Shown here: in pieces, positions 3,581 through 10,836 of the stretch
How the letters are laid out: each line of letters opens with the position of its first letter
How positions within the stretch are numbered: the stretch's first letter is position 1
NCBI GenBank assembly: GCA_963665325.3
Contig: OZ224045.1
Coordinates: 960,001 to 1,024,000 of the forward strand
DNA length: 64,000 nt
Direction of reading: 5' to 3'
Origin: Alphaproteobacteria bacterium
GTDB lineage: Bacteria; Pseudomonadota; Alphaproteobacteria; Bin95
Notes under the pieces: model-generated
Databases searched by the model: none
What the model was told of the DNA's origin: nothing
Seen by the model: the letters and a program-made list of their open reading frames with translations, nothing else
Made by a program: the position numbers and the translations under genes

Positions 3581-4105
3581 TCAGGCGGCCGCGGTCAGGA
3601 TCGGCAGGGCCTGCTCATAGGCGGCGGCGGCCAGCACCTCGATCTCGTCCGGCCGGCGGCTGCCGATCGGGTGTTCGACCATCACGAAGGGATAGTCGGG
3701 AAGGCCCAGCGTCCGGGCGATGTTCCGCGCCGTCACCTCGAAGGGTTCGGTGCAGATGACGATCGCGCGTTTCCCGAGCTGCTCGAAGCTGATGCCGTCA
3801 TGCAAACTGCACGTCGAACAGGAGCCTCAGTCGCCCAGTCCCGTTATGAGGAAATCGACCTTCTGCGCCGCGGCCTTCAGCGTCTCTTCCGGCGCGGGCG
3901 CGCTGGCGTTGGACTTCGAATAGACCGGCACCACCGTGCAGCCATGCCGGGCCTCGAAGACGGCGGCGGTCTCGCGCAGCATGGAGACGGCGTTGAGCTT
4001 GCCGTTCTCCAGCAGGCCGATGGTCCGGCCCTCCAGCCCGGCGAGCGCCGCTGCCCGACTGTTGTTCCGTTCCGGCCCCGGAACCGTGGGGTCGCAAAGA
4101 AGCAT
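3581..4105 (-). CDS. UGSC-family selenoprotein (174 aa, Sec at in-frame TGA 3827-3829)
   Basis: Track ORFs 3827..4105 and 3581..3805 are in the same frame. Readthrough gives ...ITGLGD-U-GSCSTCSLHDGISFEQLGKRAIVICTEPF..., the UGSC motif. RBS-like GGGAG lies upstream of the ATG at 4105. Confidence 0.88.
3799..3813 (-). promoter_or_regulatory. Putative bacterial SECIS hairpin
   Basis: mRNA CGUGCA-GUU-UGCAUG starts 13 nt after the UGA, with G first in the apical loop. It resembles the upper stem of the E. coli fdhF SECIS. Confidence 0.6.
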
Positions 4106-4138
4106 GCCTATCGTCTCCCGTCCGTTGTCAGTTTCAGT

Positions 4139-4171
4139 CTACTCGCAATCGATGCACACGCCGATGGGCTT
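4139..4171 (+). repeat. 33-bp direct repeat copy 1 (orphan 3' end of gene 4990..6069)
   Basis: CTACTCGCAATCGATGCACACGCCGATGGGCTT, identical to 4990..5022. Encodes KPIGVCIDCE-stop on the minus strand. Confidence 0.97.
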
Positions 4172-4189
4172 TCACGGTCTGCCCGATAG

Positions 4190-4621
4190 TCAGCCGCTGC
4201 CGCTCGCATAGTCGGCGAGCGTCATGACCGCCCCGCCGTGAGCGGTCGGTGCAACTGCATTCGCGAAGCGGCGGTCGGCCGTCACGACAGTCGCGCCGAT
4301 ACGATGGGCCAGCGCAAGATACATGAAGTCGTAAACCGGCCTGTCGAGCGCCAGCGCAATCCGGATTGCATCTGCACCGACCGTTTCGTCGGCGTGCCAC
4401 TGCACCGGCATCCGGGGAACCGAAGCCATCATTGCGCCTGCTTCGTCATGCTCGATCTGGCCCCGGCGCGCTTTGCTCCAGAGCGCATTGGCCAGTTCGG
4501 CCGCCATCAGGCGCGGCGCATGCAGGTCATGCCGGCCTGTCGCCAATTCACGCGCGGCTTCGAAATCTTCCTCGGCTACCAGCCATTTGACCGCTACGCT
4601 GGCGTCAACGACCAGCCGCAT
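4190..4621 (-). CDS. vapC: PIN-domain (VapC/FitB-like) toxin
   Basis: MRLVVDASVAVKW...AELANALW...VYDFMYLALA...VVTADRRF. TGATG coupling with the antitoxin. Confidence 0.93.
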   Translation of the reverse strand: MRLVVDASVAVKWLVAEEDFEAARELATGRHDLHAPRLMAAELANALWSKARRGQIEHDEAGAMMASVPRMPVQWHADETVGADAIRIALALDRPVYDFMYLALAHRIGATVVTADRRFANAVAPTAHGGAVMTLADYASGSG

Positions 4622-4890
4622 CAGAAGCCGAGATGGGGGCGATGGCCGCGGTCGCGGTCTTCGCGGATCAACTCCTCGGCAGGCGTATGTTCGCGCCCTT
4701 CCGTCAGGCTCCGCAGCCGGTCGGCGATGGCCAGGAAGTCGGCGCGTTTGGCCTCCATGTCGTCGTCCTCGACCGCACATTCCAGGATATGGCGCACCTC
4801 GCCCTCCAGGGACCGGTTGTTGCCCGAAGCGCGATGCTTGAGACGCCGGACCACATCGTCATCGAGCTGCCGCACGTTTATCGTCGCCAT
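4621..4890 (-). CDS. FitA-like RHH antitoxin
   Basis: MATINVRQLDDDVVRRLKHRASGNNRSLEGEVRHIL...LIREDRD, a paralogue of 312..548. Confidence 0.9.
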   Translation of the reverse strand: MATINVRQLDDDVVRRLKHRASGNNRSLEGEVRHILECAVEDDDMEAKRADFLAIADRLRSLTEGREHTPAEELIREDRDRGHRPHLGF

Positions 4891-4909
4891 CTTTCGATCC
4901 TCGACCGAT

Positions 4910-4928
4910 TGCTATCGAATTGATAGCA
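4910..4928. promoter_or_regulatory. FitA-type operator inverted repeat
   Basis: TGCTATC-GAATT-GATAGCA, about 20 bp upstream of the antitoxin. Half-sites match the Neisseria fitAB operator (TGCTATCA/TGATAGCA). Confidence 0.65.
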
Positions 4929-4989
4929 TAACCGGGCGGAAAGAGACAGTCTCCATCGTCCGGTCGGGCAGCCGGCTCGCGCTCCCCGC

Positions 4990-5022
4990 CTACTCGCAAT
5001 CGATGCACACGCCGATGGGCTT
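4990..5022 (+). repeat. 33-bp direct repeat copy 2 (current 3' end of the gene)
   Basis: Identical to 4139..4171. Confidence 0.97.
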
Positions 5023-6069
5023 CGATTGCATGAGGGAGGCGCGGCCGCGGCTCCAGGAGGGGATGAAGCTGGAATGGCCGCCGGCGTCGCCGCCGCCCAT
5101 GAGGATCATGATGTCGTCCGGGCCGAGGCCGCGGTGGAACTTCCCGTCACCCGCCAGCGGGCGCACGCCCTCCTCCGCATGCTGCTTGCCGTATTCGACA
5201 TCGCGGTGCTTGCCGACAGACTTCATGCCCTCGACGCTGCGCCACGCATGGGCGAACAGGTATTCCTGCGCCTGTCTCCGCGTCCATCCGGCGCCGGAGA
5301 GGATGCGCATATGCTCCGGGGCCATCACCACCACGGACTGGCCGAGCGTGATGCAGCCATAGTTCGCCATCGCGTCGGCGAAGGTGCCCAATATGTGCTC
5401 CGGCGTGTTGCCGCCATGGTTCTCGATGTTGCAGAAGCCGCCGCCGGCGAAGACGGTGACGCTGCTCACGCCTTCCGGATAGCCCTGTTCCTCGCAGAGC
5501 AGCGGCCAGGGATTGCCCCGGCTGCGCTCCGCAATGCAGAAGCCGAATTTGGCCGGCTGGCCCTGGGTCGATTTGTCGGAGATGCCGGGGATCATCCGGA
5601 AGACGTTCATCAGGATGAGGCGCACGGCGCGGCCGATAGTGGCGTTGGCGCGGTTGCCGGGGCCGAACAGGTTCACGTCTGAGTTCATCTGAATGTCGTC
5701 GGTGACGGGGCCGCTGACGACCAGCAACGGCGCCGAGCCGCCGGTGGACGCGGTCGAGCCGTGGAAGTTGAAGCCGGGCTCGTTCATGGCCTCGAAGGCC
5801 GCGACCAGCACCGGGAAATATTCGGGCCGGCAGCCGGCCATGACGGCGTTCACCGCCGCGGCGTGGACGGTGCATTCGAGGCCCGTCGCGGGATGGCGGG
5901 CGATGGGGGTCTCGGGCGGCCGGCCCTCATAGCCGAGCATCTCTTCCACCCGCCCGGGCGCCGGCGGCACGACCGGCAGGCCGTCGGTCCAGCCCTGCTC
6001 GAAGCAATAGTCGATGGCGGCGAGCGGGTCGTCGGCGACCTCGTGCAGGCGTTCGGCATCGTAGGGCAT
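4990..6069 (-). CDS. Uncharacterised UGSC-associated protein (GWTDGLPVVPP family) with C-terminal CxxC
   Basis: GWTDGLPVVPP, AVNAVMAGC, GNRANATIGRA and GQPAK motifs, recalled as a family often fused to or next to UGSC proteins. Ends in CIDCE. Confidence 0.8.
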   Translation of the reverse strand: MPYDAERLHEVADDPLAAIDYCFEQGWTDGLPVVPPAPGRVEEMLGYEGRPPETPIARHPATGLECTVHAAAVNAVMAGCRPEYFPVLVAAFEAMNEPGFNFHGSTASTGGSAPLLVVSGPVTDDIQMNSDVNLFGPGNRANATIGRAVRLILMNVFRMIPGISDKSTQGQPAKFGFCIAERSRGNPWPLLCEEQGYPEGVSSVTVFAGGGFCNIENHGGNTPEHILGTFADAMANYGCITLGQSVVVMAPEHMRILSGAGWTRRQAQEYLFAHAWRSVEGMKSVGKHRDVEYGKQHAEEGVRPLAGDGKFHRGLGPDDIMILMGGGDAGGHSSFIPSWSRGRASLMQSKPIGVCIDCE

Positions 6070-9120: not shown

Positions 9121-9984
9121 ATGCCGGACCGACCGCTCGTGCTCGTCACCGAGAAAGACCGCGCCGCCGTCCTGACGCTCAACCGGCCGGAGAAGAAGAA
9201 CGCGATGAACGACGCGCTGCTGGCGGCGTTCATCGCCGCGGTCCGCAGCGCCAATGCGGATGACGGGGTGCGCGCCATCGTCGTCAGGGGCGCAGGCGAC
9301 TGCTTTACCTCGGGGCGCGATGCTTCCGAGTTCGAGCAGGCGGCCGTTCTGCAGGACATGTCGGTGGATGCGGCGGTGGACATCTTCCTGGAGGCGCTCT
9401 CGCTGCTGATCGAATCGCCGAAACCGACGATCGCCGCCGTGCATGGCATGGCGCTCGGCGGCGGGCAGGCGATGTCGCTTGCCTGCGATTTCGTCGTGGC
9501 GGAGCGGGACGCGCGGTTCGGCAATGTGGAGATGGCCTACGGCTTCCCGGCAGCCATGAACATCGCGCTGTTGACCCGCCAGATCGGCCGGCGCCGGGGG
9601 CTGGAGATCGCCATGACGGGCGACCTCTACACCGCCGAGCAGTATCGGGAGTTCGGCCTGGTCAACCGGCTGGCGGAGCCCGGCGGGCTGGACGAGGCGG
9701 TGGCGGCCTTCGTCGGCACGCTGACCGACCTAGCGCCCTGGGCGGTCCGGCGCACCAAGACGACCTATCGCCTCGCCGAGGACATGGCGCTGCACGGCGC
9801 GCTCAACTTCGGCAACCAGCTGAACCAGCTCTTGCGCCTGAACGGCCAGCTCGCGCCGATCCACAGCCGCAGCGAGGGGGTGAAACGGGCGCTCAAGACG
9901 GATATCGCGGACAGGGAGGCGGCGGAGGGGGGTAAGCCGCCGCAGGAAAGAGGCCGCCCGGCGCCGGGCCCGTTCAGGCGATGA
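9121..9984 (+). CDS. Enoyl-CoA hydratase/isomerase family
   Basis: LNRPEKKNA, FTSGRD, KPTIAAVHGxALGGG, FGxxE. Confidence 0.9.
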   Translation: MPDRPLVLVTEKDRAAVLTLNRPEKKNAMNDALLAAFIAAVRSANADDGVRAIVVRGAGDCFTSGRDASEFEQAAVLQDMSVDAAVDIFLEALSLLIESPKPTIAAVHGMALGGGQAMSLACDFVVAERDARFGNVEMAYGFPAAMNIALLTRQIGRRRGLEIAMTGDLYTAEQYREFGLVNRLAEPGGLDEAVAAFVGTLTDLAPWAVRRTKTTYRLAEDMALHGALNFGNQLNQLLRLNGQLAPIHSRSEGVKRALKTDIADREAAEGGKPPQERGRPAPGPFRR

Positions 9985-10375
9985 CGGCTACACCTTCGGC
10001 GGAGGCCGCGCGGGCAAGGGCGCGGTCGAGCGTCGCAAGGCTGTCGCCCCGGCGCAGCGCCGTCTCCAGATAGGCAGCGTCGTAGGCGGACAGGCGGCGA
10101 TTGCACGCGAGCGCGAAGACCGTGTCCTCGTCATGAGAATCGTCCTGCGCCAGTTGCAGGTTCCGCAAACGTGTCAGGAACCGCGCGCTTTGGGTGCGGT
10201 CGATACGGCCGCGGCGTTCGTTCACAATCAGGATATTGCGGATTTCATGCCGGAAGAGTCCGGGAACGACGCCTCCGGTTTGCGGCAGGATATCCAGAAC
10301 GTGCTCGGCCGCCTGCGCCTGCTCATCGGGAAAGCACCACGCCGCCGCGATGGAGGCGTCGATAACGACAGCCAT
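9974..10375 (-). CDS. vapC: PIN-domain VapC toxin
   Basis: MAVVIDASIAAAWCFPDE...HEIRN...LSAYDAAYL...LATLDRAL. TGATG coupling. Confidence 0.92.
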   Translation of the reverse strand: MAVVIDASIAAAWCFPDEQAQAAEHVLDILPQTGGVVPGLFRHEIRNILIVNERRGRIDRTQSARFLTRLRNLQLAQDDSHDEDTVFALACNRRLSAYDAAYLETALRRGDSLATLDRALARAASAEGVAVIA

Positions 10376-10608
10376 CAGGCGCGGCCCTCGTCCCTGGCGG
10401 CGCGAATCTCCGCGGCAGAGACGGAGGGGCGTTCCTTTCGCTCCTGCCTCAAGAGTTCGACGGTGCGGGCGACCGGTTCCCGTATCGGCACGATGCGGGC
10501 GGCCGGCACGCCGTTGCGCGCGATGACGACATCCCGGCCTTCCTCGGCCTGGGCGATCAGATGCGACAACCGCGTCTTGGCATCGCCGATATTGAAGGTG
10601 GGAGGCAT
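10375..10608 (-). CDS. Phd/YefM family antitoxin
   Basis: FNIGDAKTRLSHLIAQAEEGRDVVIARNGVPAARIVP, the Phd N-terminal signature. Confidence 0.92.
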   Translation of the reverse strand: MPPTFNIGDAKTRLSHLIAQAEEGRDVVIARNGVPAARIVPIREPVARTVELLRQERKERPSVSAAEIRAARDEGRA

Positions 10609-10664
10609 GGACCCGGTTCCTGTCTGCGTGTCCGTATCCGCCCACAGATATCCACCGTTACAGA

Positions 10665-10685
10665 CTTGGTCAAGGCTTGGTCAAG
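10665..10685. promoter_or_regulatory. Tandem CTTGGTCAAG boxes, putative Phd operator/-35
   Basis: CTTGGTCAAG-G-CTTGGTCAAG; each box is an interrupted palindrome and reads TTGACC on the minus strand, about 55 bp upstream of the antitoxin. Confidence 0.5.
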
Positions 10686-10701
10686 CGGGTTGGCGGAGCC
10701 C

Positions 10702-10836
10702 ATGGCGGTGCATGGCGCGCTCAACTTGGGCAACCGTCTGAACCGGCTTCTGCGTCCGAACGGCCCGCATGCGCCCATCCACAGCCGCAGCGACGGGGTC
10801 AGGCAGGCACTCAGGACGGATATGGAGGAAGGGGAA
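10702..10836 (+). pseudogene. Degenerate duplicate of the 3' end of the enoyl-CoA hydratase gene (9784..9918)
   Basis: Ungapped manual alignment, 109/135 nt identical. MAVHGALNLGNRLNRLLRPNGPHAPIHSRSDGVRQALRTD vs MALHGALNFGNQLNQLLRLNGQLAPIHSRSEGVKRALKTD. Confidence 0.9.

Follow-up and report, generated by a model that had tools for sequence, protein, structure and literature searches.

Integrative islands are bounded by attL and attR repeats, and there exist cis-mobilizable elements (CIMEs) which have no integrase of their own. Campbell-type insertion-duplication and homology-facilitated illegitimate recombination have reportedly been described in transformable bacteria by de Vries and Wackernagel in 2002 and by Prudhomme et al. 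in the same year. Here we describe a toxin–antitoxin cassette, consisting of a FitA/VapC (PIN) gene pair lying between two copies of the end of a neighboring gene, in the 5.58 Mb genome of an alphaproteobacterium (G000; GCA_963665325.3). The window, i.e., the whole stretch of DNA analyzed, comprises 64,000 nt (G000:C1:960001–1024000; contig OZ224045.1), and coordinates without a prefix refer to it; in the labels G stands for a genome, L for an extracted locus, and X for a public sequencing run. The locus is tentatively regarded as one case of a recurring route, without a recombinase gene of its own, for selfish gene pairs into and out of bacterial chromosomes—a view to which we give somewhat less than even weight.

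This locus resembles integrative islands and CIMEs in that its direct repeat restores the 3′-end of the target gene, that the empty site has a single copy, that the repeat ends are flush with the gene end, and that the unit is not autonomous. Unlike them, it has no integrase at the site in any relative searched, the repeats are specific to each locus and possess no common core, and the unit measures only 818 nt and holds two genes. It differs from insertion sequences, miniature inverted-repeat transposable elements, and transposons in having no terminal inverted repeats and in the length of its duplication, which is 33 nt here and 22–269 nt at like cassettes. Its resemblance to Campbell-type and homology-facilitated recombination is that one homologous arm anchors the foreign DNA, and that a circle bearing a gene-end fragment duplicates this fragment while the gene stays intact; those are laboratory observations, however, rather than a natural, recurrent class of toxin–antitoxin cassettes.

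The closest published case is the ParE/RelE 26 locus of Photorhabdus laumondii TT01 which, in the parts of Belot et al. (2026; PMC13617665) considered here, is flanked by a duplicated 24-bp palindrome resembling the Tn3 res site I. It too is a toxin–antitoxin-only insert within a short duplication, and a close relative possesses the empty site with a single copy of the palindrome. The repeat of TT01 is intergenic and res-linked, whereas that of the present locus comes from the coding end of a gene, is not palindromic, and reaches exactly to the stop codon; moreover, there is no trace of Tn3 and no plasmid relative here, the repeat being set apart from res sites without formal comparison. The same authors report pseudogenization of toxins, with which the toxin-first erosion in G007, G008, and G010 (see below) agrees, and call the mechanisms of toxin–antitoxin transfer and loss poorly characterized; how chromosomal modules enter and leave genomes is the gap addressed here. 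Small strain-variable segments of E. coli, S. aureus, and S. pyogenes have direct repeats on either side in 10–18% of cases (Touzain et al. 2010; PMC2884548), and deletion between the repeats, which are mostly <30 bp and were read as pre-existing, has been proposed; the sections of that paper considered here do not describe gene-end duplication around cargo. The literature searched contained no description of natural gene-end-flanked toxin–antitoxin cassettes.

Structure of the cassette locus

The target, or "host," gene (6069..4990, minus strand) is an open reading frame for a 359-aa protein without a Pfam or NCBIfam family, the C-terminus of which reads ...KPIGVCIDCE*. Its functional last 10 codons and TAG stop (4990..5022, minus) constitute the proximal copy of the repeat, while the distal copy (4139..4171, minus) is an untranslated relic of the gene end which is preceded by an in-frame TGA. 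A repeat search of the window revealed two copies of 33 nt, 100% identical and 851 nt apart from start to start, thus bearing out the initial annotation of a perfect gene-end duplication bracketing a toxin–antitoxin-only insert. The repeat starts 10 codons upstream of the stop and ends exactly with it, and local alignment detected no likeness past 33 nt on either side. In the whole genome the 33-mer occurs exactly twice (both strands, up to six substitutions tolerated), and it is therefore neither a dispersed repeat nor common to the paralogs of the gene.

The 818 nt between the copies consist of the antitoxin gene, the PIN gene, a leader, and a tail, and nothing else. The leader (4891..4989, minus; 99 nt) is presumed to be the promoter region of the pair; it shows no match to the sigma-70 consensus and includes a palindrome, TGCTATC-N5-GATAGCA (4910..4928), which is a putative operator and is intact in six of the seven cassette-bearing species, with one base altered in G006. 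The FitA-like ribbon-helix-helix antitoxin gene (4890..4621, minus; 89 aa; PF22513, 2.3e-15) is followed by the PIN-domain, VapC-type toxin gene (4621..4190, minus; 143 aa; PF01850, 2.5e-14, 54.3 bits against a cut-off of 23.6), the start ATG of which (4621–4619) overlaps the antitoxin stop by 1 nt. A PIN toxin with an overlapping gene for a small DNA-binding antitoxin upstream identifies the pair, by sequence, as type II VapBC/FitAB. From the toxin stop to the distal repeat there is a tail of only 18 nt (4172..4189, minus). Integron attC sites measure 57 nt or more, for which this tail is too short.

Because the two genes fill the insert, there is no space for a transposase or an integrase and, as annotated initially, no inverted repeat links the two ends of the cassette. 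An 8-nt match, CTGCCCGA, seen by eye near both ends was rejected as a terminal inverted repeat, being absent in relatives. A longer original duplication was likewise rejected: the apparent resemblance between the leader and the native spacer with the start of the next gene does not exceed that of shuffled sequences, 150/500 of which reach its score. That next gene encodes a UGSC-family selenoprotein (4105..3581, minus) and is separated from the distal copy by the native spacer (4106..4138, minus; 33 nt), which carries its ribosome-binding site, GGGAGA. Misassembly is excluded in practice, since six other genomes, each assembled independently, have the same structure.

Occurrence in related genomes

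Sixty related genomes, including 16 congeners, were searched with the 359-aa protein; each species is represented by one genome, and the relatives are not independent. An orthologue (at least 81% aa identity) is found in 15 of the 16 congeners, the remaining one, G004 (730 contigs), giving only paralogue-level matches. Six of these 15 (G009, G011, G002, G006, G013, and G010) possess the same toxin–antitoxin pair with matching left and right junctions, 877–884 nt separating the stop codon from the UGSC start. In another six (G005, G015, G012, G001, G003, and G014) the site is empty, with one repeat copy and a spacer of 31–34 nt. The first four of these, which are close congeners, show precisely the empty site that had been predicted, a single 33-nt copy followed by a spacer of 33–34 nt.

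The junction is similarly short in other genera, where 10 of the 12 readable ones measure 12–59 nt, one 152 nt, and one (G025) contains an unrelated insert of 809 nt; the toxin–antitoxin pair is present at none of these 12. The order of stop codon, short spacer, and UGSC start in the six empty congeners and these 10 junctions upholds the proposal that the distal copy marks the ancestral gene end. Distal copies differ from their own proximal copies at 3–6 of 33 positions in the six other carriers; all 33 match in G000 only, and its perfect repeat may reflect chance retention or gene conversion.

G007 and G008 retain an antitoxin-only remnant, a common deletion having taken the PIN gene and the distal copy, and in G008 the antitoxin gene is degenerate as well. 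The PIN gene of G010 has an in-frame TAG. Where erosion is seen, in G007, G008, and G010, it is toxin-first. In G016 the cassette, a degenerate distal copy, and the UGSC and amidohydrolase genes lie 1.1 Mb from the 359-aa gene, which retains its own intact end; upstream of the moved cassette there are a trace of the proximal copy and approximately 270 nt extra (L057, C1:2256232–2259995; L013). This state is a rearrangement with its breakpoint at the gene end.

Cassette DNA, at 84–97% identity, was found solely at this site and in G016, where it has moved with the UGSC gene. The relatives were also inspected for an integrase-bearing island, and neither a larger element nor an integrase remnant exists at the site in the 15 congeners with the orthologous gene. 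A search of 72,556 plasmids gave no nucleotide match to the cassette, and proteins encoded on plasmids are <50% identical to the toxin. Relatives of the toxin at 55–76% aa identity are found in Paracoccaceae, Binatia, Gammaproteobacteria, Pseudomonadales, Acidobacteriota, Dehalococcoidia, and others, the closest being from uncultured Alphaproteobacteria, which implies that the toxin family has probably been spread widely by horizontal transfer.

Age and recombination history

Identical left and right junctions in G000, G009, G011, G002, G006, G013, and G010 point to a single insertion, which is old and has mostly been inherited vertically. The cassette is not a recent or visibly active element here, the same insertion and junctions being common to seven species and moved in an eighth. 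On a species tree of a single gene, rpoB, in which G003 and G014 are outermost, the pattern of presence and empty sites requires at least five changes, namely one gain and four clean losses. Here G012 is sister to G000 (support 100/100), G001 to G009 (100/100), and G005 to G007 (100/99), while G015 falls within a clade with G008, G005, and G007 (100/100). The tree of the 359-aa gene conflicts in part with that of rpoB; G005 and G015 are still nested among carriers.

Mismatches to G000 are distributed unevenly along the locus: in the cassette interior (4200–4930) there are 20 in G009 and 73 in G011, on the UGSC side (3863–4138) 42 and 19, respectively, and on the side of the 359-aa gene (5036–5430) 27 and 22. 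The locus is a mosaic, toxin–antitoxin alleles thus being swapped between species by homologous recombination. Frequent exchange of this kind would also explain the clean absences through replacement with an empty allele; recombination between the repeats can equally have produced them. Clean excision between the repeats, as first envisaged, therefore stands in part: the clean absences do nest among carriers, but allele replacement explains them equally well, and no excision junction was found. The single copy of G015 reads as a chimera of proximal and distal copies, at just two synonymous sites, which is a weak indication.

Public sequencing data comprised 24 runs in the form of assembled contigs, and in the four of these that were compared with the locus (X2, X4, X12, and X16) the cassette is present. 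A single contig covers the whole stretch in X16, and one in X12 extends from inside one repeat to inside the other (4142–5019), as would be expected of an assembly graph broken at the repeats. No joint skipping 851 nt occurs in these contigs, and a graph with k=31 cannot resolve a 33-nt repeat, so that this says nothing on excision.

Cassettes of the same build

The genome scan proposed initially, for other toxin–antitoxin modules bracketed by repeats, yielded further cassettes of this build. G000 possesses 24 PIN loci, two of which have strong flanking direct repeats: the locus described above and a second site in the same window. At the latter a Phd/YefM antitoxin gene (10608..10375, minus) and a PIN toxin gene (10378..9974, minus) are found with a repeat of 143 nt (9775–9917 and 10693–10835; 80%), in which the 3′ portion of an enoyl-CoA hydratase gene (9121..9984) has been duplicated and has since decayed. 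This repeat reaches 225 nt in G007 and G008, and among relatives the second site exists in filled, antitoxin-only, relic-only, and empty states. One further PIN locus, C1:732973, was dropped because the match between its flanks, at 28% protein identity, is likely to be between neighboring paralogues.

Among 150 PIN loci of five congeners, 17 have a flanking repeat with E ≤1e-3 and six one of at least 50 bits; of these six, two are orthologues of the second site and four are new. In L076 (G011:C3) the repeat spans 73 nt with 100% identity (0/73 mismatches) and takes in the next gene's ribosome-binding site and initial codons; in seven other species this site is empty with a single copy. On its left the L076 cassette has a gene (positions 273–851) of a multi-copy family, with many matches of approximately 70–86% nucleotide identity across the genus. 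In L169 a FitA/PIN pair lies within a 92-nt repeat of the end of a luciferase-like monooxygenase gene, in L208 a Phd/PIN pair within 70 nt from the 5′-end of the next gene, and L081, a congener PIN locus, has a repeat of 269 nt. Homology between L076 and L081 is limited to the coding part, and the notion that they form one cassette family was discarded.

Fifty loci with relatives of the toxin (L244–L293) were extracted from a collection of species genomes, of which 45 are non-orthologous to the main site, and three of the 45 are tightly bracketed by repeats. All three are FitA/PIN cassettes from distant genomes: in L292 it is the end of a semialdehyde dehydrogenase gene that is duplicated (22 nt), in L277 that of an E2 acyltransferase gene (123 nt), and in L266 an entire tRNA-Val gene (102 nt). 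Cassettes of one toxin–antitoxin family at five targets have no end motif in common; only coding sequence is shared, plus the operator in one pair.

Toxins are not the sole cargo. A survey of G000 for short direct repeats 0.3–3 kb apart gave 232 raw pairs, reduced to 58 at ≥85% identity. Clusters rich in repeats, three tandem integrase-like segments, and a repeat present in three copies were excluded, and 20 loci were examined; two loci sharing a hairpin repeat (L224 and L242) and three representing paralogues or internal protein repeats (L229, L240, and L241) were not counted. The thresholds of all the repeat surveys were set by the authors, and the labels of flanking genes are Pfam matches. 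The bracketed cargo includes two AAA_14-DUF4143 ATPases, an HATPase_c_3 protein, a Gp49/XRE pair, MazEF with a transposase fragment, and unknown genes, and the duplicated ends include those of GMC oxidoreductase, aldehyde dehydrogenase, UbiD, molybdopterin oxidoreductase, and glutathionylspermidine synthase genes. The two AAA_14-DUF4143 genes lie within repeats of local sequence—193 nt, 97% in L232 (C1:2385897–2387772) and 36 nt, 94% in L235 (C3:166791–168203)—which suggests that they may have entered in the same way as the toxin–antitoxin cassettes. Approximately 9 kb before the window, a small XRE-type helix-turn-helix gene (L226; G000:C1:950884–951509) has a 132-nt, 98% repeat with the 5′-end of an MFS transporter gene; together with the two cassettes of the window it makes three such structures in 20 kb.

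Position of the repeat ends

Twelve of these cases involve a 3′-end (4139–5022, 9775–10835, L227, L228, L232, L234, L239, L243, L169, L277, L292, and L266), and in eight of the 12, a small count without a formal null, the repeat is flush with the stop codon or the end of the tRNA. It ends at the stop in the main locus and L292, 1 nt beyond it in L232 and L228, just before it in L277, and, for L266, with the CCA terminus of the tRNA; in L227 (TGA/TAA) and L169 (TAG/TAA) the two copies have differing stops. Of the remaining four, three have their ends at +8, +17, and about +120 nt, and the second site has its end within the reading frame. Flush ends and differing stop codons are predicted if the element bore its own copy of the gene end, and are not predicted by duplication in place. 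As there is no shared end motif and every target is different, host recombination is indicated rather than a dedicated site-specific enzyme. No explanation of the flush-end regularity fits all of the facts.

Origin of the cassette

The reading we prefer, and put forward tentatively as having not quite an even chance, is that a non-autonomous cassette brought with it a copy of the target gene end, entered by host recombination, and is now an old resident. A FitA/VapC (PIN) addiction module lacking a recombinase would have been joined to a copy of the last codons of the 359-aa gene and would have entered within this short homologous stretch, the host recombination system effecting either a Campbell-type or a homology-anchored insertion-duplication. 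The outcome would be a module behind an intact 359-aa gene, the original end surviving as a 33-nt relic before the UGSC ribosome-binding site. A single event of this sort in an ancestor of most of this alphaproteobacterial genus would have been followed by vertical inheritance, by shuffling through homologous recombination, by toxin-first erosion in some lineages, and by clean loss in others. The sequences themselves establish the anatomy, the single origin, the empty sites, the decay of the relic, and the recurrence of the build, whereas the routes of entry and loss and the addiction are inferred. We infer that present-day mobility could persist in G000, where recombination or slippage between the identical copies could precisely delete the module; the toxin would then act against segregants without it, favoring retention. 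A wider class of recombinase-less "gene-end homing" cassettes is rather unlikely in our estimation: each would be a selfish cargo of one or two genes (a toxin–antitoxin pair, an AAA_14-DUF4143 ATPase, or another) with a copy of a conserved gene end reaching exactly to a stop codon or tRNA 3′-end, would move into and out of that end by host homologous recombination only, and would thereby spread among genomes having the same gene, the toxin, where there is one, penalizing loss. From the initial description of a minimal integrative cassette we retain the non-autonomous, toxin–antitoxin-only part; the integrative part is not borne out, there being no integrase-bearing relative and no shared end site, and the distal copy having decayed in every other carrier and thus not being conserved as an att site.

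Several observations weigh against entry with an element-borne copy. The model gives no account of how the first cassette came to land directly behind a stop codon. For E. coli, the part of Touzain et al. (2010; PMC2884548) considered here puts the minimum for RecA-dependent recombination at about 30 bp, little below the 33 nt of this repeat. Other carriers have not conserved the distal copy, and the tract of near-identity between G000 and G009 ends within the cassette and not at the repeats; repeat-bounded exchange was accordingly rejected, the sole visible exchange being of the ordinary kind and not repeat-mediated integration. At the second site the repeat ends inside the reading frame rather than at the stop, and the relic, with a dN/dS of 0.33–0.69 relative to the working copy, looks like a neutral copy decaying after duplication in place. 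Since 5 of 300 random places reach the same repeat score, the enrichment among PIN loci is weak by number alone, and the case leans on architecture. Finally, no circle, empty-site read, or donor was seen in the assembled contigs.

The behavior of the second-site relic, as a neutral copy of a local gene, is one of the facts that would be accommodated if the target had instead been duplicated in place, an illegitimate capture (by template switch or unequal sister-chromosome joining) having doubled the 33 nt and left the repeats as its scar, with no gene-end copy ever borne by the cassette. So too would be the range of repeat lengths (22–269 nt), the lack of conserved cassette ends, the diversity of cargo and targets, the occurrence at both 3′- and 5′-ends of genes, and the near-identity of most repeats. 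The flush ends in 8/12 cases are not predicted by this explanation, however, nor do the junctions inspected show microhomology, and with no Ku homologue in the 100%-complete genome classical, Ku-dependent end joining is unlikely; overall we consider such a scar improbable. Gene-end-flush repeats and a duplicated tRNA gene are also the classic signature of integrase insertion, and the cassette might be the remnant of an integrase-driven island that entered through an att site restoring the gene end and then lost everything except the addiction module, or a CIME-like, cargo-only satellite moved in trans by an integrase encoded elsewhere. Toxin–antitoxin pairs resist deletion, and acquisition on mobile elements followed by streamlining is proposed in the portion of Belot et al. 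(2026; PMC13617665) considered here. Yet the congeners harbor no larger element from which a remnant could derive, all of the cassettes seen are already minimal, even that with perfect repeats (L076), and since the repeat differs from one cassette to the next, a separate integrase would be required for each; nor do the cassettes have any core or end motif in common. This origin too we hold to be improbable. That the repeat is due to chance or to an assembly artefact, the pair being an ordinary intergenic resident, draws on the finding of exact flanking repeats of ≥30 nt at 14 of 1000 random places in the genome. The repeat is, however, precisely a gene end with its stop codon, empty sites differ by exactly one repeat unit plus the insert, and the structure recurs in six other assemblies, which reduces this explanation to a negligible one.

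A duplicated gene end that reaches exactly to the stop codon, a cassette of minimal size without any recombinase, and precise empty sites together make up a concrete and testable signature. If host recombination alone moves such units, as under the element-borne copy that we prefer, this would explain how small selfish genes come to lie inside unharmed operons and would give annotators a simple rule for spotting recent insertions. If each repeat is instead what a one-off illegitimate event left behind, it would still have to be explained why the boundary is flush with the gene end.

Neighboring genes

A third FitA-like/PIN pair lies downstream of a CobW-like GTPase gene at positions 1–587, running past the start of the window; neither DNA nor protein comparison detected a flanking repeat around it. 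The UGSC gene is followed, in minus-strand order, by an amidohydrolase gene. The UGSC product belongs to the family by two models (PF24696, 3.1e-48; NF041046, 129.9 bits against a cut-off of 125) and has the motif GDUGSC, in which U (Sec) is specified by an in-frame TGA at 3827–3829. The 359-aa protein has seven matches in G000 including itself, the other listed ones being approximately 40% identical. In several relatives a gene of the 359-aa type adjoins a UGSC-family gene, sometimes as two tandem pairs, and the 359-aa gene may represent an unnamed partner family of the UGSC selenoproteins.

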